Part shown: piece after piece, positions 1-54,872 of the stretch
Layout of the letters: every line of letters begins with the position of its first letter
Numbering within the stretch: the stretch's first letter is position 1
From: Escherichia coli
GTDB taxonomy: Bacteria > Pseudomonadota > Gammaproteobacteria > Enterobacterales > Enterobacteriaceae
Assembly: GCF_048403405.1 (NCBI RefSeq)
Contig: NZ_CP183129.1
DNA length: 64,000 nt
Direction: 5' to 3' (one strand)
The notes under the pieces: model-generated
Told to the model about the DNA's origin: nothing
The model's input: only the letters and a program-made list of their open reading frames with translations
Database searches by the model: none
Position numbers and translations under genes: made by a program

Positions 1-1862
1 TGAATGGTGTCACGCCGCCAGCGGTGCAGCACCTGACCGCCGAAGTCACCGCAGACAGCGGGGAATATCAGGTGCTGGCGCGCTGGGACACGCCGAAGGT
101 GGTGAAGGGCGTGAGCTTCCTGCTCCGTCTGACCGTAACAGCGGATGACGGCAGTGAGCGGCTGGTCAGCACGGCCCGGACGGCGGAAACCACTTACCGC
201 TTCAGGCAGCTGGCGCTGGGGCGTTACACGCTGACGGTCCGGGCGGTAAATGCCCGGGGACAGCAGGGCGATCCGGCGTCGGTATCGTTCCGGATTAACG
301 CACCTGCAAAACCCGCCACCATTGAGCTGACGCCGGGGTATTTTCAGATAACGGCGGTCCCGCGTCTTGCGGTGTATGACCCGACGGTACAGTTTGAATT
401 CTGGTTCTCAGAAAAACGCATCACGAACACAGCACAGGTGGAAAAATCTGCCCGTTATCTGGGGACCGGCAGTCAGTGGACTGTCCAGGGGAGCCGGATT
501 AAGCCGGGGACGGATTTCTGGTTTTACGTGCGAAGCGTCAACCTGGTGGGAAAATCTGCTTTTGTGGAAGCCAGCGGGCAGCCCAGCAATGATGGTGAAG
601 GGTATCTGGAAATTTTCCGGGGGCTGATAGATGAGACGCTTCTGGGCCAGGCACTGAAAGAGCGCATTGATGCTTCAGCGCTGCGTACGGAGGTCACGCA
701 ACTGGAAGAAGACATCCGTCAGCGGATGGACACGGATATCGCAGAAGTGACCCGGAAAATCGGGAAGGCGGAAAACAGCCTCACGCAGCTGGTTGCGAAA
801 AAGAATGAGGACCAGACACTGGCCATCGCGCAGGTGAGCCAGAAAGTGGACCGGGTGAGCAGTGAAATCTCACAGACTGTCAGCCAGGGGCAGTCAGAAA
901 ACGCCCGACAGATAGCACAGGTCCGCCAGTACGTGGATAAAAAAGGGAGTGAAATTACCTCGACCACGGATAAAAAGCTGGGTGACCAGGCCGTGACCAT
1001 ACAGCAAATCCAGCGGGTTCAGTCAGACACGCGCAATGAGCTGAATGCCATGTATATGCTGAAGGTGCAGAAAACAAAAAACGGTATTCCCTATGTGGCC
1101 GGGATTGGCGCGGGGATTGAGGATGTTGATGGTCAGACCCTGAGTAACATTCTGCTGCAGGCCGATCGCATTGCGATGATTACCCCGGAGAACGGCAACA
1201 CCACGCCGCTGTTTGTGGCGCAGGGGAATCAGCTGTTCATGAACGACGTGTTCCTGAAGCGACTGTTTGCGGTGAGCATCACGTCATCCGGCAATCCTCC
1301 GACGTTTTCCCTGACGCCGGATGGCAGGCTGACAGCCCGCAATGCGGATATCAGTGGAGCCATCATGGCGAATACCGGCACGCTCAATAATGTCACCATT
1401 AACAAGAACTGTGTCATCAGAGGGAAACTGTCTGCAAACCAGATTGAAGGCGATCTCGTTAAAACAGTGGGTAAGGCTTTCCCTCGTGACTCCCGTGCAC
1501 CGAAGCGTTGGCCATCAGGAACCATTACCGTCAGGGTTTATGACGATCAGCCGTTTAACCGGCAGATTGTTATTCCGGCGGTGGCTTTCAGCGGTGCCAG
1601 ACATGAGCGGGAGAACAGCGATACTTATTCGTCATGCCGCCTGATAGTGAAGAAAAACGGTGCTGAAATTTATAACCGTACCGCGATGGATAATACGCTG
1701 GTTTACAGTGGTGTTATTGATATGCCTGCTGGTCGCGGCGACATGACGCTGGAGTTTTCTGTATCAGCATGGTGGGTAAATGGCTGGTATCCCACAGCAA
1801 GTATCAGCGATTTGCTGGTTGTTGTGATGAAGAAAGCCACTGCAGGCATCACGATTAGCTGA
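1..1862 (+). CDS. J: Tail tip/host-specificity protein J, C-terminal part (5' end upstream of window)
   Basis: Open frame runs in from the window edge (track ORF 24..1862); translation resembles lambda gpJ-family; followed by lom. Confidence 0.85.
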
Positions 1863-1881
1863 ATTTTATAACCCATATACG

Positions 1882-1906
1882 GGCGCCAGAAATGGCGCCT
1901 TTTTTA
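1882..1906 (+). terminator. Intrinsic terminator after J
   Basis: GC hairpin GGCGCC-N6-GGCGCC followed by a T-run. Confidence 0.6.
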
Positions 1907-1929
1907 TTGCAGAAAAGCGAGAGGTAATT

Positions 1930-2529
1930 ATGCGTAAATTATGTGCAGCCATTTTGTCCGCAGCCATCTGTCTGTCCGTATCCGGTGCGCCTGCATGGGC
2001 GTCTGAACATCAGTCCACACTGAGCGCGGGGTATCTTCATGCCCGTACGAACGCTCCCGGCAGCGATAATCTGAACGGGATTAACGTGAAATACCGTTAT
2101 GAGTTTACGGACGCGCTGGGGCTGATTACGTCCTTCAGTTATGCCAATGCTGAGGATGAGCAAAAAACGCACTACAGCGATACCCGCTGGCATGAAGATT
2201 CCGTGCGTAACCGCTGGTTCAGCGTGATGGCGGGGCCGTCTGTACGCGTGAATGAATGGTTCAGCGCGTATGCGATGGTGGGTGTGGCTTACAGCCGTGT
2301 GTCGACTTTCTCCGGGGATTATCTCCGCGTAACTGACAACAAGGGGAAAACGCACGATGTGCTGACCGGAAGTGATGACGGTCGCCACAGCAACACGTCT
2401 CTGGCGTGGGGGGCTGGCGTGCAGTTTAACCCGACCGAATCCGTAACCATTGACCTTGCTTATGAAGGTTCCGGTAGTGGCGACTGGCGAACGGATGCAT
2501 TTATTGTTGGTATCGGATACCGTTTCTGA
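1930..2529 (+). CDS. lom: Lom/Ail/PagC-family outer-membrane protein (phage moron)
   Basis: 199 aa with N-terminal signal peptide; INVKYRYE and C-terminal YEGSGSGDWRTD..GYRF motifs as in lambda Lom. Confidence 0.9.
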   Translation: MRKLCAAILSAAICLSVSGAPAWASEHQSTLSAGYLHARTNAPGSDNLNGINVKYRYEFTDALGLITSFSYANAEDEQKTHYSDTRWHEDSVRNRWFSVMAGPSVRVNEWFSAYAMVGVAYSRVSTFSGDYLRVTDNKGKTHDVLTGSDDGRHSNTSLAWGAGVQFNPTESVTIDLAYEGSGSGDWRTDAFIVGIGYRF

Positions 2530-2635
2530 CAACAGACGCCGATTTATCTTCTGTAAATATTGTTATGATACGCAGGTTCATCCACCTTATGGGGTGAACT
2601 GCGTTTGAGGAAACGTAAAGTTACACTGTCCTGAA

Positions 2636-2667
2636 GCCCGTGGCGTCACTGCTGCGGGCTTTTTTTA
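2636..2667 (+). terminator. Intrinsic terminator after lom
   Basis: Hairpin AAGCCCG..CGGGCTT followed by TTTTTTT. Confidence 0.6.
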
Positions 2668-2680
2668 TTGGTGGAAAAGT

Positions 2681-5600
2681 ATGACAGTAAAAATTTCTGG
2701 CGTGCTTAAAGATGGCACAGGAAAACCAGTACAGAACTGCACCATTGTGCTGAAGGCCAGACGAACCAGCAGCACGGTGGTGGTGAACACGGTGGCCTCT
2801 GAAAATCCGGATGAAGCCGGACGTTACAGCATGGATGTTGAGCATGGCCAGTACAGCGTCACCCTGCTGGTTGAAGGTTTTCCGCCTTCACATGCCGGGA
2901 CCATTACCGTCTATGAAGGTTCCAGACCAGGTACGCTGAATGATTTTCTCGGTGCCATGACGGAGGATGATGTCCGACCGGAGGCACTGCGCCGCTTTGA
3001 GCAGATGGTGGAAGAGGTGTCACGTAACGCCTCCGCGGTTGCACAGAATACGGCAGCCGCGAAAAAATCAGCCAGCGATGCCAGTGCATCAGCCAGCGAG
3101 GCGGCAACTCATGCAACCGATGCTGCAGCCTCAGCACGTGCCGCCAGCACGTCAGCCGGACAGGCCGCGTCGTCGGCTCAGTCAGCGTCTTCCAGCGCAG
3201 GAACGGCATCGACAAAGGCCCGTGAAGCAGCAAAAAGTGCTGCTGCTGCAGAGTCATCAAAAAGCGCGGCAGCTACCAGCGCCAGTGCCGCGAAAACGTC
3301 AGAAACGAATGCCGCAGCATCACAAAAATCGGCAGCCACTTCTGCATCCACAGCGACCATGAAGGCGTCAGAAGCTGCCACCTCGGCACGGGGTGCGGCG
3401 GCCTCAAAAGAGGCAGCGAAATCTTCAGAAACGAATGCATCATCAAGTGCCAGTAGTGCAGCTTCCTCGGCAACGGCGGCAGGAAATTCCGCGAAGGCGG
3501 CAAAAACGTCCGAGACGAACGCTAAGTCTTCTGAAACAGCAGCGGGACAGAGCGCCTCAGCTGCGGCAGGTTCAAAAACAGCGGCTGCATTATCTGCCAG
3601 TGCCGCGTCAACAAGTGCCGGGCAGGCCTCAGCCAGTGCCACCGCCGCCGGAAAATCGGCAGAAAGCGCCGCATCATCCGCTTCAACAGCCACAACGAAG
3701 GCTGGCAAAGCCACTGAGCAAGCCACTGCAGCAGCGAGGTCTGCTTCTGCAGCAAAAACCTCTGAAACAAATGCAAAGACTTCAGCAGACAATGCTGCTT
3801 CCTCTAAGGCGGCAGCCGCATCGTCAGCCAGTTCAGCGGCGTCATCGGCATCATCTGCGTCTGCTTCAAAAGATGAGGCGACCAGACAAGCGTCAGCAGC
3901 GAAAGGTAGTGCCACGACAGCAACAACGAAAGCATCAGAGGCGGCAGGCAGTGCGACGGCTGCATCTCAGAGCAAAGTTGCTGCTGAATCCGCGGCAACG
4001 CGCGCCGAGACAGCAGCAAAACGGGCAGAGGATATTGCATCCGCCGTGGCGCTGGAGGATGCGAGCACGACGAAAAAGGGGATAGTACAGCTCAGCAGTG
4101 CAACAAACAGCACCAGTGAAAAGCTGGCGGCAACGCCAAAGGCAGTTAAAACTGTTAAAGATAGTTCAGTTCAAAAAACTGGCGACACAATGGGAGGGCA
4201 GTTAAAAATCAGCACGATAAATGCTCTTCGAATATTCAACCAAGCCTTTGGCCTTATTTTTAGGCGTTCCGAAGATCATCTTCATCTTATTCCGACTAAT
4301 GAAGGGGAGGGGGAAAATGGAGACATCGGTTCATTAAGACCATTCTCTATAAACTTAAGATCAGGGTTGGTGTCCATCGGTAATGGACTAAAAGTTGGTG
4401 GTAGTGTTACTGGTAATTTGACCGGAAACGCAGATACTGCGACCAAGATCAAGACAGCACGTAAGATTGGGGGCGTGGCATTTGATGGATCGGCAGATAT
4501 CAACTTGCCTGGAGTCAACGCTACCGGTAATCAAAACACTACAGGTAATGCTGCGACCGCCACGAAACTTCAGGCAGCCAGAACGATTAACGGTGTGTCA
4601 TTTGATGGTAGTGCAAATATCACATTGACCCCTTCAAATATTGGGGCATTGGCATTAACTGGAGGGACTCTTTCAGGTGGTTTAACTGCTGCTGGTGAGG
4701 TTATTTCAAGGTCAGCAAATGGTCTGCGTATTGCCTATGGCAACTATGGATTCTTTATCCGAAATGATGGATCAAACACATATTTTATGTTGACAGATTC
4801 GGGTAACAGTCTTGGTACGCACAATAGCTTAAGGCCGTTTATAATTAGTAACCATACTGGCAATGTTACAATTGCAACTAAATTAAACGCGAGTGGTGGT
4901 ATCACTGGATCTTTATCGGGTAATGCAAGCACAGCAACCAAATTGCAAACTGCAAGGACAATTAACGGCGTAAAATTTGACGGCTCGGCAAATATTGAAG
5001 CGTTTCCGCCAGGTGTTCCGCTGCCGTGGCCATCAGATACACCACCTGCAGGTTATGCGATCATGCAGGGGCAGACGTTTGATAAGGCAGCATATCCGAA
5101 ACTGGCTATTGCCTATCCTTCAGGTGTTATTCCAGATATGCGCGGCTGGACAATCAAGGGCAAACCCGCCAGTGGCCGGGCCGTATTGTCTCAGGAACAG
5201 GACGGCATAAAATCGCACACCCACAGCGCCAGCGCATCCAGTACGGATTTGGGGACGAAAACCACATCGTCGTTTGATTACGGCACTAAATCCACGAATA
5301 ACACCGGGGCGCATACGCACAGTCTGAGTGGCTCTACGGGGTCTGCCGGTGTTCATACTCATGGTAATGGTATTCGTTGGCCAGGAGGCGGCGGTTCTGC
5401 GTTAGCATTTTATGATGGCGGTGGGTTCACTTATGTCCAGAATTCACAGTATCAAGTAAGCCCGGAGACTTCTTCCTATAGATCGTATTATCAACGTATT
5501 CAGACACAGTCAGCAGGTGCTCATACCCACTCGCTGTCTGGTACTGCAGCAAGTTCTGGCGCACATGCACATACTGTAGGTATTGGTGCGCATACGCACT

Positions 5601-5707
5601 CCGTTGCGATTGGTTCACATGGACACACCATCACCGTTAACGCTGCGGGTAACGCGGAAAACACCGTCAAAAACATCGCATTTAACTATATTGTGAGGCT
5701 TGCATAA
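2681..5707 (+). CDS. stf: Side tail fibre protein
   Basis: 1008 aa; N-terminus [22 protein letters not shown] and C-terminus ..[11 protein letters not shown] match lambda Stf as recalled; stop overlaps tfa start (TAATG). Confidence 0.9.
3040..4060. repeat. GC-rich Ala/Ser-rich repetitive coding region inside stf with recurring AAKTSETNA units
   Basis: Near-identical DNA blocks (..aaaacgtcagaaacgaatgc..) recur at ~3293, 3418, 3498, 3751. Confidence 0.7.
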
Positions 5708-6291
5708 TGGCATTCAGAATGAGTGAACAAGCACGGACCATAAAAATTTATAATCTGCTGGCCGGAACTAATGAATTTATTGGTGAAGGTGACGCATATA
5801 TTCCGCCTCATACAGGTCTGCCAGCAAACAGTACCGATATTGCACCACCAGATATTCCTGCTGGCTTTGTGGCTGTTTTCAACAGTGATGAGGCATCGTG
5901 GCATCTCGTTGAAGACCATCGGGGGAAAACGGTTTATGACGTAGCGTCAGGGGACGAGTTATTTATTTCTGAACTCGGTCCGTTACCGGAAAATGTTACC
6001 TGGTTATCGCCGGAAGGGGAGTTTCAGAAGTGGAACGGCACAGCCTGGGTGAAGGATACGGAAGCAGAAAAACTGTTCCGGATCCGGGAGGCGGAAGAAA
6101 CAAAAAACAACCTGATGCAGGTAGCCAGTGAGCATATTGCGCCGCTTCAGGATGCTGCAGATCTGGAAATTGCAACGGAGGAAGAAACCTCATTGCTGGA
6201 AGCCTGGAAAAAGTATCGGGTGTTGCTGAACCGTGTTGATACATCAACTGCACCTGATATTGAGTGGCCTACGAACCCTGTCAGGGAGTAA
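5707..6291 (+). CDS. tfa: Tail fibre assembly protein
   Basis: 194 aa; [38 protein letters not shown] matches lambda Tfa as recalled. Confidence 0.9.
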
Positions 6292-6342
6292 TCATTGGGA
6301 TTATGCCGCAGCACGTCTTAAGCAAGAACGTGCTGCGGTTGG
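6131..6342 (+). repeat. Direct repeat copy 1: tfa 3' end plus downstream 11-bp-stem palindrome
   Basis: About 210 bp repeated at 7182..7391; last ~95 bp nearly identical by eye. Confidence 0.85.
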
Positions 6343-6345
6343 ATG

Positions 6346-7014
6346 CTATTTTTTCCCTGAAGCGGAAAACATTACTACAGTACCTTGAACCTTGGTTTTA
6401 ACATTCTCGAAATGCTCTGAGAGTATATGTGTTAAGCCTTCTTCGGAATCTTTTGTGTTTGAAAAGATGCCTTTCTGATTGTAAATGCGCATCAGTTTTT
6501 GACCGAAGCTATTGTGCACAACTCCATCGCCAAGAATTGTGGCTCCGTATAGAGTTCCATCGTCAGTTAAGGCCTGCGCCGCATTGCGTATTACACAGCT
6601 TTTTGTAGATATATTTCCAGGCAGGCAGTGAAGAAGGTAAAACATGGAAATGGAATCAAATTGACCATGTAACGCCGCGGGATAAGGTTCAAAAACATCA
6701 TGGCTAATTTTATGTTTAATTTTTGATTCCCCAGCCCTTGTAGATGCCGCGTTCAGGCTAGCTTCGTTCAAATCCATTAAAGATATCAGACTACTCTCAG
6801 GTACGTGAGTAAGGTAAAACCCAGTTCCAACACCAATATCCAGATGGTTGTTACCTACATGTTCCAGAAAGTGTGGAAGAAGGTGTTCCTTTGTAGGACA
6901 TCCCCATGCAAGCCGATTTGATACTCCCAAAACCCACCAGTCATAAAGCTTTAGGGTAAGTGGTGTGTAAATTTTAGCCCCATCATCTGTGTTTTTTTTC
7001 ATTGATTTCACCAT
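6346..7014 (-). CDS. Class I SAM-dependent methyltransferase, substrate unknown (prophage cargo gene)
   Basis: Rossmann motif I LDIGVGTG and downstream acidic residue (LMDLNE); AT-rich by eye; a second ATG 4 codons in (MKKNT, end 7002) has the better SD (GGTGA). Confidence 0.7.
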   Translation of the reverse strand: MVKSMKKNTDDGAKIYTPLTLKLYDWWVLGVSNRLAWGCPTKEHLLPHFLEHVGNNHLDIGVGTGFYLTHVPESSLISLMDLNEASLNAASTRAGESKIKHKISHDVFEPYPAALHGQFDSISMFYLLHCLPGNISTKSCVIRNAAQALTDDGTLYGATILGDGVVHNSFGQKLMRIYNQKGIFSNTKDSEEGLTHILSEHFENVKTKVQGTVVMFSASGKK

Positions 7015-7070
7015 GTTATAGTTTTATTTGTGAATTAAATCAATTATGGCGATGAATTACAAGGGGTTAA

Positions 7071-7340
7071 ATGCTGCCGCAGCATAGCGATATTGAAATA
7101 GCCTGGTATGCTTCGATACAGCAGGAGCCGAATGGCTGGAAGACCGTCACCACACAGTTCTACATCCAGGAATTCAGTGAGTATATTGCGCCACTGCAGG
7201 ATGCTGTAGATCTGGAAATCGCAACGGAGGAAGAAAGATCGTTGCTGGAGGCATGGAATAAATATCGGGTATTGTTGAATCGTGTTGATACATCAACTGC
7301 ACCTGATATTGAGTGGCCTGCAAATCCTGTCAGGGAGTAA
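7071..7340 (+). pseudogene. tfa remnant: C-terminal ~55 codons of a tail fibre assembly gene fused to an unrelated N-terminus
   Basis: C-terminal translation ..[51 protein letters not shown] parallels the Tfa C-terminus. Confidence 0.55.
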
Positions 7341-7391
7341 TCATTGGGATTATGCCGCAGCACGTCTTAAGCAAGAACGTGCTGCGGTTGG
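7182..7391 (+). repeat. Direct repeat copy 2 (see 6131..6342)
   Basis: Same sequence block including the palindrome CCGCAGCACGT-N11-ACGTGCTGCGG. Confidence 0.85.
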
Positions 7392-7455
7392 CTGGTGAAC
7401 TTTCGATAGTGCGAGTATTGAATGATTTCCAGCCGTTACCGATTTTACGTGTTAA

Positions 7456-7704
7456 TTAGTGAACAAACCACTCGTCAGCAGACTCCCAGGTATCTTTCAG
7501 AGTTTCCTGAACAAAAGTTTTAGCTGAATCTTTATCGGCGGTGCGCGTAACAGAAAGGCCATCGTTGCTGGTAGCTTTTACGATCACCTCTACATCGTCA
7601 TAACGTTTACTGATGCGTCGGGTTAATTCTTCCTTTAACGCATCCACAGCACCGGTTGGCATTTTAGTCATTTTTTCTTTGGCTATGCAGATTTCAATAC
7701 GCAT
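7456..7704 (-). CDS. DinI-like protein (SOS-inducible, prophage-encoded)
   Basis: 82 aa; MRIE..IAK...GA(V/I)DAL..EL.RRI and C-terminal [13 protein letters not shown] match the DinI family. Confidence 0.85.
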
Positions 7705-7719
7705 AAAAGTCCCTCTACA

Positions 7720-7735
7720 CTGTGTTTGTATACAG
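7720..7735 (-). promoter_or_regulatory. LexA box (SOS operator) ahead of the dinI-like gene
   Basis: CTGT-N8-ACAG (cactgtgtttgtatacagta) 16 bp upstream of the start codon. Confidence 0.75.
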
Positions 7736-7747
7736 TATCATTTTTAA

Positions 7748-7763
7748 CTGTATGGATAAACAG
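7748..7763 (-). promoter_or_regulatory. Second LexA box in tandem
   Basis: CTGT-atggataa-ACAG. Confidence 0.65.
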
Positions 7764-7790
7764 TGTCAAGGGTGAAGGAAAGTGATTTTT

Positions 7791-7849
7791 TGGGGCATGC
7801 ATGGGGCAAAAATATTTGTTGTGGGGCATTTTGGGGCATGATTGGGACA
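7791..7849. repeat. Array of four perfect and one degenerate TGGGGCA direct repeats near the prophage-host junction
   Basis: TGGGGCA at 7791, 7802, 7822, 7832; TTGGGACA at 7842. Confidence 0.8.
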
Positions 7850-7951
7850 CTTTGTTACATATGAACTTTGCCGATTTTTATATGACATGGAAATACAACG
7901 CTTTGATTCTTCTAAATAAAAAACATGCTCTTGGGCGTTCTTTAGTGATTT

Positions 7952-8062
7952 TTAAAAATTCCGTATCACGCAGTTAAAGTGGCGGGCATACTCTTCAAGG
8001 CTGGTGATCCCCAACCGCACCCATTTAGGATGCGACCATTGCGGCAGACCGATGTAAATCAT
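7952..8062 (-). pseudogene. yecE: Truncated yecE (first ~32 codons retained, then disrupted by the prophage)
   Basis: Minus-strand translation [32 protein letters not shown] then diverges and stops; ATG overlaps yecD stop (ATGA). Confidence 0.6.
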
Positions 8063-8640
8063 AATGCGTTGAGGATCTCTTCCACACTGCGCACACGGGC
8101 GATGCGTGGGTAGATATGGTTGATGCTGTTATTGTGCTGCTCGGCGCTGGCGGCGCTGCAGGCGTCTTCGGCAATCACCAGATTAAAACCGAGTTCCCAG
8201 GCATTGCGGGCGGTGGATTCAACACCGATATTGGTCGAGATCCCACATAATACTATTGTATCGATACCCCGGCGGCGTAATTGCAACTCCAGATCCGTAC
8301 CGTAAAACGCACCCCATTGATGTTTGATGATTTCGATATCGCTGTCGGTTGCACCTAATGCAGCAGGATGTTGCCACCAGTTTTCGGGTAACACTTTAGC
8401 AGGGGAGGGGACATCAACCGGCTGTTTTAATGCTTCGGCATAATCGGCAGACCAGCCAACGCGCACCAGAAACACGGGCTGACCGCTCGCGCGAAATTTC
8501 GCCGCCAGCTTCCCGGCGCGATTAACCACCTCATCGGCAGTATGTGGACCTCCGGCAAAAGGTAAGATGCCTTCTTGTAAATCAATCACCACCAGCGCAG
8601 TGGTTTTAGCATTAAGTTCAAGCATGATGACTCCTGACAA
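8059..8640 (-). CDS. yecD: Isochorismatase-family hydrolase YecD
   Basis: 193-aa ORF (K-12 form starts at MLELNAK, 8625); position next to aspS. Confidence 0.85.
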
Positions 8641-8934
8641 AACAAAATCGTGCCTCTCACCTTAATGCGATTAGCCGATGGCGGAACGACAAATTTTGTT
8701 AATTTTTATGAGTTCGGGCAACACCTTTATAGCAAACTGGCGTAGAGTCTGATTTCAGGCCCGATATAAAGTGGTAACGAGGTGTTCCAGCGCGGGCCAG
8801 GCTCTTACGGTGCGGCAGAATTTCCAGTATAATAGCCGCCTTTTTTCATTCAGTTGTGACATACAGCTAACGCTGCGACTTGGTCACCTGCGCAGCAGGG
8901 GGCATCCGCCGGCAGCTAAGTTAAGGGATATCTC

Positions 8935-25566: not shown

Positions 25567-27378
25567 ATGAACCCACAATTGTTACGCGTAACAAATCGAA
25601 TCATTGAACGTTCGCGCGAGACTCGCTCTGCTTATCTCGCCCGGATAGAACAAGCGAAAACTTCGACCGTTCATCGTTCGCAGTTGGCATGCGGTAACCT
25701 GGCACACGGTTTCGCTGCCTGCCAGCCAGAAGACAAAGCCTCATTGAAAAGCATGTTGCGTAACAATATCGCCATCATCACCTCCTATAACGACATGCTC
25801 TCCGCTCACCAGCCTTATGAACACTATCCAGAAATCATTCGTAAAGCCCTGCATGAAGCAAATGCGGTTGGTCAGGTTGCAGGCGGTGTTCCGGCGATGT
25901 GTGATGGTGTCACCCAGGGGCAGGATGGAATGGAATTGTCGCTGTTAAGCCGCGAAGTGATTGCGATGTCTGCGGCGGTGGGGCTGTCCCATAACATGTT
26001 TGATGGTGCTCTGTTCCTCGGTGTGTGCGACAAGATTGTCCCGGGTCTGACGATGGCAGCCCTGTCGTTTGGGCATTTGCCTGCGGTGTTTGTGCCGTCT
26101 GGACCGATGGCAAGCGGTTTGCCAAATAAAGAAAAAGTGCGTATTCGCCAGCTTTATGCCGAAGGTAAAGTGGACCGCATGGCATTACTGGAGTCAGAAG
26201 CCGCGTCTTATCATGCGCCGGGAACATGTACTTTCTACGGTACTGCCAACACCAACCAGATGGTGGTGGAGTTTATGGGGATGCAGTTGCCAGGCTCTTC
26301 TTTTGTTCATCCGGATTCTCCACTGCGCGATGCTTTGACCGCAGCCGCTGCGCGCCAGGTTACACGCATGACCGGTAATGGTAATGAATGGATGCCGATC
26401 GGTAAGATGATCGATGAGAAAGTGGTGGTGAACGGTATCGTTGCACTGCTGGCGACCGGTGGTTCCACTAACCACACCATGCACCTGGTGGCGATGGCTC
26501 GCGCGGCCGGTATTCAGATTAACTGGGATGACTTCTCTGACCTTTCTGATGTTGTACCGCTGATGGCACGTCTCTACCCGAACGGTCCGGCCGATATTAA
26601 CCACTTCCAGGCGGCAGGTGGCGTACCGGTTCTGGTGCGTGAACTGCTCAAAGCAGGCCTGCTGCATGAAGATGTCAATACGGTGGCTGGTTTTGGTCTG
26701 TCTCGTTATACCCTTGAACCATGGCTGAATAATGGTGAACTGGACTGGCGGGAAGGGGCGGAAAAATCACTCGACAGCAATGTGATCGCTTCCTTCGAAC
26801 AACCTTTCTCTCATCATGGTGGGACAAAAGTGTTAAGCGGTAACCTGGGCCGTGCGGTTATGAAAACCTCTGCCGTGCCGGTTGAGAACCAGGTGATTGA
26901 AGCGCCTGCGGTTGTTTTTGAAAGCCAGCATGACGTTATGCCGGCCTTTGAAGCGGGTTTGCTGGACCGCGATTGTGTCGTTGTTGTCCGTCATCAGGGG
27001 CCAAAAGCGAACGGAATGCCAGAATTACATAAACTCATGCCGCCACTTGGTGTATTATTGGACCGGTGTTTCAAAATTGCGTTAGTTACTGATGGACGAC
27101 TCTCCGGCGCTTCAGGTAAAGTGCCGTCAGCTATCCACGTAACACCAGAAGCCTACGATGGCGGGCTGCTGGCAAAAGTGCGCGACGGGGACATCATTCG
27201 TGTGAATGGACAGACAGGCGAACTGACGCTGCTGGTAGACGAAGCGGAACTGGCTGCTCGCGAACCGCACATTCCTGACCTGAGCGCGTCACGCGTGGGA
27301 ACAGGACGTGAATTATTCAGCGCCTTGCGTGAAAAACTGTCCGGTGCCGAACAGGGCGCAACCTGTATCACTTTTTAA
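25567..27378 (+). CDS. edd: Phosphogluconate dehydratase
   Basis: 603 aa; IlvD/Edd family. Confidence 0.95.
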
Positions 27379-29387: not shown

Positions 29388-29403
29388 CTGTATAAAATCA
29401 CAG
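29388..29403 (+). promoter_or_regulatory. LexA box of yebG
   Basis: CTGT-ataaaatc-ACAG ~20 bp upstream of yebG. Confidence 0.75.
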
Positions 29404-31214: not shown

Positions 31215-31400
31215 ATTCGATATCCGCGCCATTACCTGTCATCATGTGACTGCTCCCCGCCCTGTCGGGCGAGGCTTCCCACTTCTTAAGCCGCAACCGT
31301 CTGTGTGACGGATTTACGCTGGCCTCCATGGGCAGAAACGACGAGTCCCGCCGCTTGTAATTCCAGTATGCCCTTGCGTTTGATGTTGAGCGCCGCGTTG
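31215..31400 (-). ncRNA. Candidate TnpB-associated omega/right-end RNA (inferred, boundaries unknown)
   Basis: By analogy with characterised TnpB systems the guide RNA overlaps the tnpB 3' end and the right-end hairpin; not directly recognisable from sequence. Confidence 0.3.
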
Positions 31401-32455
31401 ATATCGCGGTCATGTTCAACTCCACACTCTGGACACTGCCAGATGCGCTTATGTAATGGCATCTCCGACATTTTGTGACCGCAGCAGTGGCAGGTCTTCG
31501 AACTGGCGAACCATTGATCCAGTTTCACCAGATGCACACCTTTCTCTGTTGCTTTGTATTCCAGTTTTGTGATGAATCCAGACCATCCAGCATCGCCTAT
31601 CGCACGAGCCAGATGGTGATTTTTCATCATATTTGCCGTTTTCAATGTCTCGACAATTACCGCTTGGTTTTCGTCAACAATTGCGCGAGATAACTTGTGC
31701 TGGAAATCGGCACGGGCACTGGCTACCCGTTCGTGAACGGCTGCAAGTTGTATTCTGGCTTTGCGCCTGTTTGCGCTCCCTTTTTTCTTACGGGACAGTG
31801 CTTTCTGCTTCCGGCGCAGGTTGCGACTTGCATTGATTAGGTGGCGGGGACTGGCAATTTTATTGCCGTCCGATTTGATGACAAAATGCGCCAGCCCCAT
31901 ATCCAGCCCTGTCACATTTGATATCAGTGCGGGCTTTGCCGGCGCTTCCATCCCGTCGTCACAGAGTAACGACGCGTAGTATTTCCCGGTTGCGCTGCGG
32001 CTCAACGTGATACTTTTCAGCATTCCCGTAATTTCACGATGTAAACGCGCTTCAATCGGCAAGATTTTCGGTATTTTTATCGCACCATCAAGGACTTTTA
32101 TGCCAACACAATGATAGCTCGATTGTCTGCCGTGTTTACTTTTAAAGGTTGGTTTACCTGCTTTCAGTTTCGGATTGAAAAAGTTAGAAAAAGCCACGTC
32201 GAGGTTAATTACCGCCTGCTGCAACGCAATAGAATCATATTCTTTAAGCCATCCATACCGGCGGGATTTCTTCGCCACTGCAAGCAGTGGTTTGAGGTCT
32301 TTACGCGGGTTTAAATTTACGCGGTGCCGCTGGTAAGAATGTTTCTTGATATGCAGAGCTTTGTTGTACGCAAAACGCACTGCACCGAACTGGGCGTTGA
32401 TAAATTCAGCCTGTTCTGGTGTCGGGTAGATGCGTACTTTTGTTGCTCTTAACAT
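31286..32455 (-). CDS. tnpB: TnpB (OrfB) RNA-guided endonuclease-family protein
   Basis: 389 aa; MLRATKVRIYPTPEQAEFIN N-terminus; C-terminal zinc ribbon CHCCGH...CPECG and RuvC-III-like DRDINAALNI. Confidence 0.9.
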   Translation of the reverse strand: MLRATKVRIYPTPEQAEFINAQFGAVRFAYNKALHIKKHSYQRHRVNLNPRKDLKPLLAVAKKSRRYGWLKEYDSIALQQAVINLDVAFSNFFNPKLKAGKPTFKSKHGRQSSYHCVGIKVLDGAIKIPKILPIEARLHREITGMLKSITLSRSATGKYYASLLCDDGMEAPAKPALISNVTGLDMGLAHFVIKSDGNKIASPRHLINASRNLRRKQKALSRKKKGSANRRKARIQLAAVHERVASARADFQHKLSRAIVDENQAVIVETLKTANMMKNHHLARAIGDAGWSGFITKLEYKATEKGVHLVKLDQWFASSKTCHCCGHKMSEMPLHKRIWQCPECGVEHDRDINAALNIKRKGILELQAAGLVVSAHGGQRKSVTQTVAA

Positions 32456-32511
32456 AATCAGCGCTCATTGATATAATGCTTTTATTTTAACACTTTAGGT
32501 AAATATATCAA

Positions 32512-32937
32512 TTGAGTAATCATGATGATTTACTGGCGGGATTCCTCCGCAAACGACACAGTGTCAGTAAGCTGGTTGTGCACCTTATTTTTACGACAAA
32601 GTATCGACGTAAACTATTCGACAGTCAGATGATCGCTCAGTTGCGTGAGGCTTTTGGCTCCGCTGCGGCAAAGCTTGAATGCGAAATTATTGAGATGGAC
32701 GGGGAGCCAGACCATGTACACCTGCTGGTTGCCTACCCGCCAAAACTGGCGGTCAGTGTGATGGTCAATAATTTAAAATCGGTATCATCACGTTTGCTAC
32801 GCCAGCAGAACGCGCATTTACGTATGCAGAGTAAAACGGGGCTTTTGTGGTCGAGATCGTACTTTGTCTGTAGCACCGGAGAGGCAACGATTGAAACGCT
32901 CAGAGCCTACGTTCAGAGTCAGTCAACACCTGATTGA
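32512..32937 (+). CDS. tnpA: IS200/IS605-family transposase TnpA (HUH/Y1)
   Basis: HUH motif HVHLLVAYPPK and conserved TKYRR; first in-frame start is TTG at 32512, so the start is uncertain. Confidence 0.8.
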   Translation: MSNHDDLLAGFLRKRHSVSKLVVHLIFTTKYRRKLFDSQMIAQLREAFGSAAAKLECEIIEMDGEPDHVHLLVAYPPKLAVSVMVNNLKSVSSRLLRQQNAHLRMQSKTGLLWSRSYFVCSTGEATIETLRAYVQSQSTPD

Positions 32938-33066
32938 TCTTTAAAGCCCTGCGGGCTTTTCGCCTTATATCCCCGCCCGCATTGGGCGAGGGTTTACGGC
33001 GTTTTTCGCTAAGCAATGACTACCCTGTTTCGCTTGCATCTCCGGTGAGTTTTGCCACCCTTATAA

Positions 33067-38599: not shown

Positions 38600-38900
38600 A
38601 AAAACCGCCTCAGTTCTTTCACCAGAACGGGCGGTTTTTAACATTTAAGCTGATGACCACCGCGCTTTTTATTGACCATTTTGCACGCAAACTGGAAAAC
38701 CTGGCGTCGTCATCTATTCTTAAAGGGCAAGGCATCTAAGCCTGCATTAATGCCAACTTTTAGCGCACGGCTCTCTCCCAAGAGCCATTTCCCTGGACCG
38801 AATACAGGAATCGTGTTCGGTCTCTTTTTATCTGTTAAAAGCCAGAAGCATTCCCTTCGCTGACTTTATAGTCAACCATAACACACACTCTACTGTCTGA
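38600..38900 (-). ncRNA. ryeA: RyeA (SraC) antisense sRNA overlapping SdsR (boundaries approximate)
   Basis: K-12 yebY-pphA intergenic locus encodes this overlapping sRNA pair; strong bidirectional terminator at ~38605..38640. Confidence 0.4.
38727..38829 (+). ncRNA. sdsR: SdsR (RyeB) sigma-S-dependent sRNA
   Basis: Sequence gcaaggc..gcctgcattaatgccaacttttagcgcacggctctctcccaagagccatttccctggaccgaatacaggaatcg.gttcggtctcttttt matches the remembered SdsR sequence; ends in hairpin + T-run. Confidence 0.7.
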
Positions 38901-53672: not shown

Positions 53673-54341
53673 TCCTTCCTCAATCTTGAGTAACCCCGTC
53701 GTTGAAGGGTTACTCAATTCATCCTGATTATACGCACTGCCATGGTGCAACTGCTTCAAATTAAAACTCTGGTCTGACTTCAAATAATTATCATATTATT
53801 TATTTGCGTAACGGGATATCAGAAAAAGATATTTAGCCCATTAATTTATTAGGATGTTTACATCGGATTTGTGATTAAGTGTGGTATTATTTATTAGCGA
53901 AACGTTTCTCTCTTGATTTTTTTGCGCATTCATCAATTTTTCTTATTTTAAATTTACAATACCTTTGGCGATTGACTTCTCTTTGGGGTGATCGATAGCC
54001 GTTAACTGACTGTTTTATGAGAAAAAGTGATATAACTTTTTATTCATTGCATAGCAGAAAATGTGATATTGCACGCACTATGTAATAACTTCTCCCACTG
54101 GCCTGGAACAACTGAACTTATTGAACTATGTTAGAAAATACGTCAGTTTAAGTATCTGCCTGAACTGGCAAGGTTAAGCACAATGATATATCGGCGCGTA
54201 TTCCGTTGCATAAGTGTGCAAAAAAAGTGGAAGACGTATCGAGATTTGTGCGTCTGATCGAGACATGTTTAAAAATGGCTTGCCATAATTAACGTTGTAT
54301 GTGATAACAGATTTCGGGTTAAACGAGGTACAGTTCTGTTT

Positions 54342-54485
54342 ATGTGTGGCATTTTCAGTAAAGAAGTCCTGAGTAAACACGTTGACGTTGAATACCGCTT
54401 CTCTGCCGAGCCTTATATTGGTGCCTCATGCAGTAATGTGTCAGTTTTATCTATGTTATGCCTGCGGGCGAAGAAAACAATCTAA
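54342..54485 (+). CDS. yobF: Small protein YobF (upstream of cspC)
   Basis: 47 codons ([33 protein letters not shown]...); read manually, not in ORF track. Confidence 0.75.
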
Positions 54486-54497
54486 GGAATTTTTCAA

Positions 54498-54707
54498 ATG
54501 GCAAAGATTAAAGGTCAGGTTAAGTGGTTCAACGAGTCTAAAGGTTTTGGCTTCATTACTCCGGCTGATGGCAGCAAAGACGTGTTCGTACACTTCTCTG
54601 CTATCCAGGGTAATGGTTTCAAAACTCTGGCTGAAGGTCAGAACGTTGAGTTCGAAATTCAGGACGGTCAGAAAGGTCCGGCAGCTGTTAACGTAACAGC
54701 TATCTGA
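54498..54707 (+). CDS. cspC: Cold-shock-domain protein CspC
   Basis: 69 aa; RNP1-like KGFGFI and VFVHF. Confidence 0.95.
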
Positions 54708-54753
54708 TCGAATCCACTGATCTGAAGTGTGAATACGCTTCAATCTCGCTATA

Positions 54754-54780
54754 AAGCCTCGTCGAATGCGAGGCTTTTTA
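54754..54780 (+). terminator. Intrinsic terminator after cspC
   Basis: GCCTCG-N6-GCGAGGC followed by TTTTT. Confidence 0.65.
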
Positions 54781-54872
54781 CTTTGCTTTATCTTCGCTCC
54801 AGTCGTTCGGATATTTGCCCGCCGCGTGATTCGCGTTACACTTGCGGCCTTTAGTATCCTGCCGGAGTTGTC

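Follow-up and report, generated by a model that had tools for sequence, protein, structure and literature searches.

The first 7,966 nt of the window, the 64,000-nt stretch of E. coli DNA analysed here, represent with a probability of roughly 0.93 the right, tail-fibre arm of a lambdoid prophage that was integrated into yecE by a phiP27-type tyrosine integrase at an 11-bp core. A lambdoid right end in yecE is already known biology, and the arm shows no departure from known lambdoid prophages. The C-terminal receptor-binding domains of J are followed on the same strand by lom, stf (phage_tail_N) and tfa (Caudo_TAP). Cargo comes next, made up of a gene for a class I SAM methyltransferase, an ORF of 89 aa with a Tfa C-terminal domain and a DinI-like gene preceded by two LexA boxes. 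A 262-bp att arm follows. With the window beginning within J, attL and the int, immunity, lysis and head genes of this prophage would lie beyond the visible stretch. The practical value is in annotation, since the prophage boundary is set to the base, with 7966 as the last phage base and the core at 7967–7977.

The sequence-only reading had placed an abrupt return to core sequence inside yecE and proposed an alignment with an uninterrupted yecD-yecE locus. In the alignment to K-12, similarity to the left of 7967 does not exceed chance, and from 7967 onward the two sequences are nearly identical; yecD-yecE homology thus resumes exactly at this position, which fixes the attR break. The arm end given earlier as 7965 was nearly right but 1–2 bp off, the last phage-specific base being 7966. 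The core CACGCAGTTAA at 7967–7977, read on the yecE strand as TTAACTGCGTG, is common to attB of K-12, attR of the window and attL of NZ_AP022650. It is the same as the yecE att core described in the literature (CAYGCAGTTAA; PMC5592225) and aligns with the annotated 11-bp attR of the Stx2e phage phiP27.

According to the K-12 alignment, the 5′ remnant of yecE occupies 7967–8062 on the minus strand, with its ATG as the complement of 8060–8062. Its 96 nt correspond to exactly 32 codons, where about 32 had been estimated. Past 7967 the frame runs through four phage-encoded codons into a stop, and no intact yecE-like frame continues leftwards past 7952, in line with a prophage end. The gene is disrupted in this strain, and in NZ_CP142949 and NZ_AP022650 the annotation lists the same remnant as a partial pseudogene. 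On the chromosomal side, yecD (8059–8625, minus strand) is the first intact gene; it encodes an isochorismatase-family hydrolase (Pfam Isochorismatase, 2.1e-40; also annotated in relatives) and overlaps the start of yecE by 4 bp. There is no tRNA gene, which rules out tRNA-targeted integration.

Integrase recombination at the 11-bp core would have split yecE after codon 32, leaving 7967–7977 as the attR copy with the 5′ remnant beside yecD. The 3′ part of yecE would then be expected beside int at attL, probably ~40–50 kb upstream of the window. In relatives, PGAP annotates a DUF72 ORF of 256 aa at attL, a place outside the window, which raised the idea that a functional yecE is restored there with an N-terminus provided by the phage. 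In this ORF, 13 unrelated residues replace the 29 native N-terminal ones before the shared, core-encoded NCV, and translation would start at a non-standard codon; a functional rebuilt yecE was therefore judged unlikely.

The yecE site is unbroken in 4903 of 5426 complete E. coli genomes and carries this junction in 325 of the 5426, so that ~10% of complete genomes have a split yecE and 6% this arm type. Approximately 5100 E. coli genomes match the junction probe only from its base 198, equivalent to window position 7967, and all genomes without this junction align only from 7967. Some match to the tail genes exists in 5425 of the 5426 genomes, as would be the case if J-lom-stf-tfa were a fixed chromosomal feature, for instance a domesticated tailocin-like cluster. 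These matches, however, belong to different prophages located elsewhere (median of six places per genome), whereas yecE is intact at this position in 90% of genomes and the junction combines a canonical att core and a conserved arm. The distribution of the junction, together with the intact yecE in most genomes, refutes a fixed block, which has practically no chance of being correct. The J-lom-stf-tfa block is thus not chromosomal in all related genomes, and the prophage assignment stands. The description of yecE as a hotspot for lambdoid, including Stx-converting, phages agrees with the literature, which records Stx1a, Stx2a and Stx2d phages as well as non-Stx lambdoid phages at this site (PMC8112680, PMC5592225).

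Within the arm, the 3′ part of J, encoding the tail tip or host-specificity protein, spans 1–1862 on the plus strand and matches positions 837–1163 of the 1163 positions of NCBIfam lambda_TipJ. The frame is open from base 3 with 619 codons visible and no internal stop, the gene being cut by the window start. Pfam assigned the domains Ig_J (5e-38), Ig_J_second (3e-40), Phage_Tail_Tip (9e-25) and Ig_GpJ_C (2.5e-38) within 24–1862, and the protein is 99.8% identical to J of NZ_CP142949. The next gene, lom (1930–2529, plus strand), encodes an Ail/Lom outer-membrane beta-barrel of 199 aa, matched over its full length by Pfam Ail_Lom (5.5e-126). It is followed on the plus strand by stf (2681–5707) for the 1008-aa side tail fibre (Pfam phage_tail_N 5.6e-70, Gp34_trimer, Collar and Phage_fiber; phrog_295 tail fibre) and by tfa (5707–6291) for a tail-fibre assembly chaperone of 194 aa (Pfam Caudo_TAP 1.9e-44; phrog_105 8.8e-101). 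The lambda order read from the bare sequence is therefore supported by Pfam, phrog and NCBIfam matches, with no NCBIfam model matching the methyltransferase, Stf or Tfa.

The stf gene itself is a mosaic, with 57% G+C in its N-terminal and central part and 47% in its C-terminal part. By exact-protein look-up, an identical Stf was found in prophages at another chromosomal site, among the 8 places listed. The neighbours of that site read as potB-potA-pepT-phoQ-phoP-purB from their Pfam content and order. An Rfam scan gave IS009 at 6050–6248, inside tfa, as its sole match, which looks like sequence conservation of a coding region, and no regulatory RNA in the cargo.

Downstream of tfa, the G+C content is 41.8% (6292–7966), compared with 52.6% for J to tfa and 50.1% for the chromosome, which substantiates the AT-rich cargo noted before; the last 262 bp have 35.5%. 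The cargo consists of a methyltransferase cassette and the dinI-like gene, putatively controlled by LexA, and contains no virulence gene.

The methyltransferase gene (6346–7014, minus strand) encodes a class I SAM-dependent enzyme of 222 aa, or 218 aa from an alternative start, with matches to Pfam Methyltransf_12/23/25. Over its full length it belongs to phrog_2132 (4e-157), a PHROG family without assigned function. All 1611 homologues are named just “class I SAM-dependent methyltransferase”, and one cluster at 90% identity contains 6589 member sequences. The AF2 model has a pLDDT of 90.3, the glycine-rich SAM-binding loop DIGVGTG is invariant in 29 homologues, and Foldseek matched many class I methyltransferases with a probability of 1.0, all of which supports a Rossmann-like fold; by sequence, matches in the PDB reach only E-values of about 1e-3. 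The best fold matches are lipid or small-molecule enzymes (PE N-methyltransferase, JHAMT, NodS) at 15–21% identity and TM scores of about 0.55–0.66, and the fold search singled out no single substrate class. A PADLOC search with the methyltransferase, the 89-aa ORF, the dinI-like gene and a 58-aa ORF from the att arm returned just a marginal mad2 match (E 0.0093), so that no defence system was assigned. The prophage arm as a whole opens no new question, its sole loose end being the substrate of this widespread prophage methyltransferase.

Divergent from the methyltransferase gene lies the 89-aa ORF (7071–7340, plus strand; in the following called tfa′), with the motif AAGGGG 5 nt upstream of its ATG. 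It combines a unique N-terminus with a Tfa C-terminal domain (Pfam Caudo_TAP, profile positions 75–130 only) that is 81% identical at the amino acid level to Tfa residues 132–194, and matches phrog_2341 over its full length (1–88/88, 4e-61). The methyltransferase cassette is bracketed by direct repeats on the plus strand, the left copy (6126–6342) comprising the tfa 3′ end plus 51 bp and the right copy lying at 7175–7391; in blastn the two are 91.7% identical over 217 bp. NZ_CP142949 possesses one repeat copy and lacks exactly 1049 bp, corresponding to the cassette. As the cassette is flanked by direct repeats of the tfa 3′ end, homologous recombination can lead to its gain or loss. An interpretation of tfa′ as a decayed invertible tail-fibre segment was rejected on account of the direct orientation and the absence of an invertase and of inverted repeats. 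That idea had been prompted by an invertase at the corresponding place in the related phages Kati, 2H10 and PhiR68_2.

One may speculate that the cassette (6343–7174 with its 217-bp flanks) is a portable lysogenic-conversion module swapped at tfa 3′ ends, in which the enzyme would methylate a host envelope lipid or small molecule and thereby alter the surface of the lysogen or its phage susceptibility, with tfa′ as a working partner rather than a fragment. The top fold match is a bacterial phosphatidylethanolamine N-methyltransferase. We regard this scenario as quite improbable.

The dinI-like gene (7456–7704, minus strand) encodes 82 aa and was assigned to Pfam DinI (1.1e-19; score 70.9, cut-off 24.2) and to phrog_189, “RecA filament binding protein DinI”. 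With the NCBIfam DinI equivalog model (PRK10597) it scored 69.5, below the cut-off of 111 for orthology to the chromosomal E. coli DinI; it is thus a prophage paralogue and not the chromosomal dinI. A promoter was predicted at 7720–7769 on the minus strand (-35 TTGACA at 7769–7764, -10 AAAAAT at 7745–7740, spacing 18), and two exact matches to the LexA-box consensus CTGT-N8-ACAG, at 7748–7763 and 7720–7735, lie over it. In the 64 kb, there are three such exact matches compared with 0.7 expected, the third one upstream of the SOS gene yebG, and phi80 has annotated LexA sites in the homologous position. Because two boxes cover its promoter, the dinI-like gene would be expected to be switched on with the SOS response, which also induces the prophage.

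One attP arm is formed by the 262 bp (7705–7966) that separate the dinI-like gene from the core. Five TGGGRCA repeats on the plus strand at 7787–7850, 5 of the 19 occurrences in the window on both strands, fall within 59 bp and are candidate integrase arm-type sites. The arms of P-EibC, phiP27 and phi80, elsewhere 76–92% identical, show no variation in these blocks, and an inverted TGGGRCA pair is present in the attL arm of NZ_AP022650. A match to the IHF consensus, AATCAAAGCGTTG, is located at 7896–7908 on the minus strand and is one of six WATCARNNNNTTR matches in 64 kb. The repeats and the IHF-like site may serve as integrase arm-type and bending sites in excision; here, as for LexA, the proposed binding is based on motif consensus and conservation. 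The arm is 100% identical to that of phage PhiR49_2 (over 199 bp, to the end of that record), and 92%, 76% and 75.5% identical to those of P-EibC, phiP27 and a phi80 fossil. A 58-aa ORF at 7801–7977 has no family match, overlaps the conserved arm repeats and was dismissed as spurious. A homologue of it is annotated in phiP27 as hypothetical L58.

The absence of a visible toxin gene, stated previously, holds for the whole of 1–7966, in which all ORF-sized spaces are accounted for; the visible arm is free of toxin and effector genes. An Stx-converting phage with stx upstream of the window might be considered since phages with Stx1a, Stx2a, Stx2d or Stx2e frequently occupy yecE, and since the relatives have the Q-tRNA(Ile/Arg/Arg)-holin arrangement that Stx phages typically show. 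The tRNA-to-holin interval, which houses stx in Stx phages, lacks it, however, in all three same-arm relatives, whose integrase is just 68–72% identical to the listed Stx-phage integrases. Moreover, the arm is at most 76% identical to an Stx arm (phiP27) and 68% identical to the right ends of PPompW prophages, hosts of Stx2a phages, and the closest genomes are of human origin, one isolate being from a rectal swab, with no stx annotated in the stretches read. Taken together, these findings make an Stx phage very improbable.

The closest relatives of this yecE prophage arm are two chromosomal prophages (NZ_CP142949 and NZ_AP022650) and phage PhiR49_2, in which int-xis lies beside the yecE 3′ part. 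One integrase, WP_000362005.1, is common to both chromosomal prophages and matches the int region of PhiR49_2 with 100% identity over 437 aa, and in NZ_AP022650 a second copy of the core (attL) was located beside int at position 27106 of locus L004. We infer that int and attL occupy the corresponding place upstream of the window.

Strain EC190329 (NZ_CP142949), the closest relative, has the same junction, yecE remnant and dinI-att arm and is 99.8% identical over 1–6345, but it lacks the 1049-bp cassette and carries HK97-type head genes and a P27-family small terminase. Strain 09-02E (NZ_AP022650) also shares junction, remnant and dinI-att arm and is 97.5% identical from 1152 to 8200, methyltransferase cassette included, but differs in the 5′ part of J and has lambda-type head genes. 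As each of them shares different parts, the arm in the window is a recombinant of both patterns. The label “lambda-like” covers the arm only, as the head module lies outside the window and these two relatives differ in head type. PhiR49_2 (PV340570.1) is 99.8% identical in dinI and arm and 97.5% in J, lom and the stf 5′ end, and has no stx. It differs in its own distal fibre module, composed of a 687-aa Stf and two small ORFs with no full tfa, in lacking the methyltransferase cassette and in having a single copy of the tfa 3′ repeat. No description of this phage (PhiR49/ECOR13) was found in the literature; its record was submitted as a phage genome and gives ECOR13 as the host. Overall, the arm is a mosaic: J-lom resembles PhiR49_2-type phages, stf-tfa-methyltransferase-tfa′ forms a module that occurs in identical form in prophages at a different locus, and the dinI-att part is specific for the yecE-type integrase. 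Window 1–12000 is matched end to end by none of the complete genomes, the best one covering 93% and lacking the cassette, and the upstream part is therefore extrapolated from two relatives with differing head modules.

These relatives also bear on whether only part of the prophage, including the right arm, survives as a defective remnant that lost excision or particle formation. Nothing upstream of J is visible in the window, NZ_CP142949 contains several pseudogenes and, between its lysis and terminase genes, an insertion of the IS3 family, and NZ_AP022650 has several pseudogenes as well. On the other hand, the visible part of J, lom, stf, tfa, the methyltransferase gene, tfa′ and dinI are all intact ORFs, the att arm is identical over 199 bp to that of a deposited phage genome, and the same-arm relatives are full length, 45–49 kb, with int and xis present. 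A defective state therefore appears rather unlikely.

Compared with known systems, the yecE prophage shares its target gene and the 11-bp core with phiP27 (AJ298298) and with the Stx1a, Stx2a and Stx2d phages in yecE, whose integrases belong to a related family (68–72% amino acid identity to that of the relatives). The att arm of phiP27 is homologous and has kept the TGGGRCA blocks; it differs in being 76% identical, in lacking dinI next to the arm and in its tail-fibre genes. The phi80 fossil (JX871397, 22.9–23.5 kb) shows the same succession as the window: a DinI-family gene, dinL, for which a LexA site is predicted, an arm sharing 75.5% identity with window 7787–7977, and an N-terminal fragment of yecE (DUF72). 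In contrast to the window, this fossil is an internal relic, and the active attP and int of phi80 follow ~1.1 kb further on. Phage lambda has the same domain families in J-lom-stf-tfa, but differs in its cargo and, with its attB between gal and bio, in integrase and att specificity. Its right arm is arranged in the order J-lom-stf-tfa-b region-attP and, as in the yecE prophage, its tail-fibre genes are separated from att by non-essential cargo.

The first 7966 nt of the window form the right tail-fibre arm of a lambdoid prophage integrated in yecE. This supports the sequence-only reading, which had proposed a lambda-like arm ending in this gene, and the element is an ordinary, already known kind of prophage end. 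At its 5′ side, the window start truncates a J-type tail-tip gene on the plus strand, of which the 3′ 619 codons remain, open from base 3 to the stop at 1862 (Pfam: Ig_J, Ig_J_second, Phage_Tail_Tip, Ig_GpJ_C). On the same strand follow lom (1930–2529; Ail_Lom, 5.5e-126), a side tail fibre gene, stf, of 1008 amino acids (2681–5707; phage_tail_N, 5.6e-70, Gp34_trimer, Collar) and a tail-fibre assembly gene, tfa, of 194 amino acids (5707–6291; Caudo_TAP, 1.9e-44). These identities are unambiguous by Pfam and concordant in PHROGs and NCBIfam; together with G+C contents of 52.6% for J to tfa, 41.8% for the cargo block (6292–7966) and 50.1% for the chromosome, they show that the gene content, order and composition first described for the arm were correct. 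The tfa coding sequence wholly contains a full-length Rfam IS009 match (RF02111, 225 bits, 6050–6248, plus strand), probably due to coding-sequence conservation and not to a separate RNA gene.

Alignment with the uninterrupted yecD-yecE locus of K-12 MG1655 fixed the breakpoint at 7967: the similarity is random to the left of this position and near-identical from it onward, and a blast of the whole window against K-12 gave a single collinear match starting exactly there. The arm end placed inside yecE from the sequence was thereby borne out within 1–2 bp. The start codon of yecE is the complement of 8060–8062, and 96 nt or exactly 32 codons are left, the approximate number given before, before the frame passes into four phage-encoded codons and ends at a stop; no yecE frame runs leftwards past the junction. 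Comparison of attB (K-12), attR (window) and attL (prophage of strain 09-02E, NZ_AP022650) yielded TTAACTGCGTG as the sequence common to all three, and nothing more. This places the attR core at 7967–7977 (CACGCAGTTAA on the plus strand), the same sequence as the published yecE att site, 5′-CAYGCAGTTAA-3′ (PMC5592225). The record of the Stx2e phage phiP27 has at its end an annotated 11-bp attR for yecE, and this, too, aligns with the core. At the attL of NZ_AP022650 (locus L004, 27069–27839) and of NZ_CP142949 (strain EC190329, locus L010, 6494–7264), the pipeline annotates a 256-aa DUF72 open reading frame, in which yecE from the core onward is preceded by 13 residues of phage origin that overlap the 3′ end of int. 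It starts with a non-ATG codon, and a truncated YecE is its predicted product only.

We searched 5426 complete E. coli genomes with a 391-bp junction probe (7770–8160) and a 211-bp probe centred on the K-12 attB. The junction probe matched 5425 genomes, only 325 of them across the junction, and genomes with an intact yecE, among the matches sampled, aligned from probe base 198, corresponding to window position 7967. The attB probe was unbroken in 4903 genomes; hence, yecE is split in approximately one tenth of the complete genomes, and about 6% possess this type of arm. At least 80% of the window region 1–12000 was found in one place in only 16 genomes. With these frequencies, the J-lom-stf-tfa block is not chromosomal in all relatives. 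Integration at yecE has been reported for Stx1a, Stx2a, Stx2d and non-Stx lambdoid phages in O145:H28 (PMC8112680) and for Stx2a and Stx2d phages in O26:H11 (PMC5592225).

Within the cargo block, a gene on the minus strand (7456–7704) encodes a DinI-like protein of 82 amino acids. Its score lies below the NCBIfam equivalog cut-off for the chromosomal DinI, and it is thus a prophage paralogue. Upstream lies a promoter match (TTGACA-18-AAAAAT), and two LexA-box matches, exact to CTGT-N8-ACAG, overlap it (7748–7763 and 7720–7735). Three such matches were observed in the whole window versus 0.7 expected; the third (CTGTATAAAATCACAG, 29388–29403) lies upstream of the known SOS gene yebG and served as internal positive control. 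The homologous dinL of phage phi80 is likewise annotated with predicted LexA sites. By established knowledge of DinI, the product likely modulates RecA filaments during SOS.

After the dinI-like gene, 262 bp of non-coding sequence (35.5% G+C) extend to 7966. Of the only 19 TGGGRCA occurrences on both strands of the 64-kb window, five lie as repeats in a 59-bp stretch of this att arm (7791–7849), and the arm also includes one of the window's six IHF-consensus matches (7896–7908). When aligned with the arms of P-EibC, phiP27 and a relic inside phi80, the repeat blocks, a block at 7926–7957 and the core were invariant, while the intervening sequence drifts. In the attL arm of NZ_AP022650, the int 3′ end contains TGGGGCA and TGGGACA as an inverted pair. 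This arrangement is what would be expected of putative arm-type integrase sites accompanied by a site for DNA bending.

Between tfa and the dinI-like gene, a class I SAM methyltransferase gene (222 amino acids, 6346–7014, minus strand) and an 89-aa Tfa-like reading frame, tfa′ (7071–7340, plus strand), diverge from a short AT-rich spacer. The tfa′ product resembles the C-terminus of Tfa, with 81% identity in its final 60 residues. Direct repeats of 217 bp (6126–6342 and 7175–7391, 91.7% identical) flank this cassette. Strain EC190329, with one copy of the repeat only, is missing precisely this cassette, which is thus gained or lost through homologous recombination in the 3′ end of tfa. The stf-tfa-methyltransferase-tfa′ module with identical Stf is very common in prophages at another chromosomal site, which we read as potB-potA-pepT-phoQ-phoP-purB judging by the Pfam content and gene order of its surroundings; sequenced phages, among them 2G7b and ev243, have the module as well. 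In loci L011–L018, found by Stf protein match (e.g., GCA_000458315.1, KE700344.1, 1127178–1150204), Stf is identical over all 1008 residues, tfa, methyltransferase gene and tfa′ are present, and the right end of the lambda-like prophage adjoins the genes so read; the identical protein is indexed in 3521 blocks of the collection. Prophages at different sites therefore have this distal tail-fibre module in common. The methyltransferase matches phrog_2132 (function label: unknown) over its full length, and its 1611 homologs across Enterobacterales are all named only "class I SAM-dependent methyltransferase". Its predicted fold (pLDDT 90) resembles small-molecule and lipid methyltransferases (TM ~0.6, 15–21% identity), among them phosphatidylethanolamine N-methyltransferase, juvenile hormone acid methyltransferase and NodS. 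A speculative reading of low probability would make the cassette a portable lysogenic-conversion module.

Elsewhere in the window, two insertions relative to K-12 were observed. One of ~700 bp between lpxM and pykA (20249–20947) is an IS200-type element with a Y1 transposase gene (20345–20854, minus strand) and an Rfam STnc490 match (20813–20936, minus strand). The other, of ~1.76 kb between yebE and ptrB (31246–33008), is an IS605-family element encoding TnpB (31286–32455, minus strand; OrfB_IS605 and Cas12f1-like TNB domain) and a Y1 TnpA (32512–32937, plus strand). Expected chromosomal RNAs lie at 38689–38833 and 54322–54782 (SraC/RyeA with antisense SdsR/RyeB, and a cspA-type thermoregulator upstream of the cspC region, respectively).

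None of the records searched matched the window end to end, and the arm is a mosaic. EC190329 is 99.8% identical over 1–6345 and 98% over 7175–8200 but lacks the intervening 1049 bp, whereas in 09-02E these 1049 bp are present but the match begins only at 1152. The phage PhiR49_2 (PV340570) matches in J-lom (97.5%) and in the dinI-att arm (98–100%) but differs in its distal tail-fibre module, and its record stops at window position 7968. All three have an excisionase, and their 437-aa tyrosine integrase is identical (WP_000362005.1 in both strains, matching the PhiR49_2 int region at 100%); the yecE 3′ part adjoins int in both chromosomal prophages. EC190329 and PhiR49_2 have HK97-type head modules with a P27-family small terminase, and that of 09-02E is lambda-type. 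All three follow the typical Stx-phage layout of Q, three tRNA genes and holin gene, with no stx in the interval from tRNA to holin. Their integrase is 68–72% identical to the listed Stx1a and Stx2a phage integrases, and the att arm shares 76% identity with the phiP27 arm. As far as these relatives can show, the prophage, whose own left arm lies outside the window, belongs to a non-Stx branch of the yecE-integrating family. PPompW prophages possess a similar arm near their right end (68% identity). Inside phi80 (locus L006, 2170–2766; JX871397, 22930–23526), dinL, a LexA site, an arm 75.5% identical to window 7787–7977 and a yecE (DUF72) N-terminal pseudogene follow each other. Together they represent the fossil attR of an ancestor that integrated in yecE, and the same dinI-arm-yecE′ arrangement shows that the module is old and was moved by recombination.
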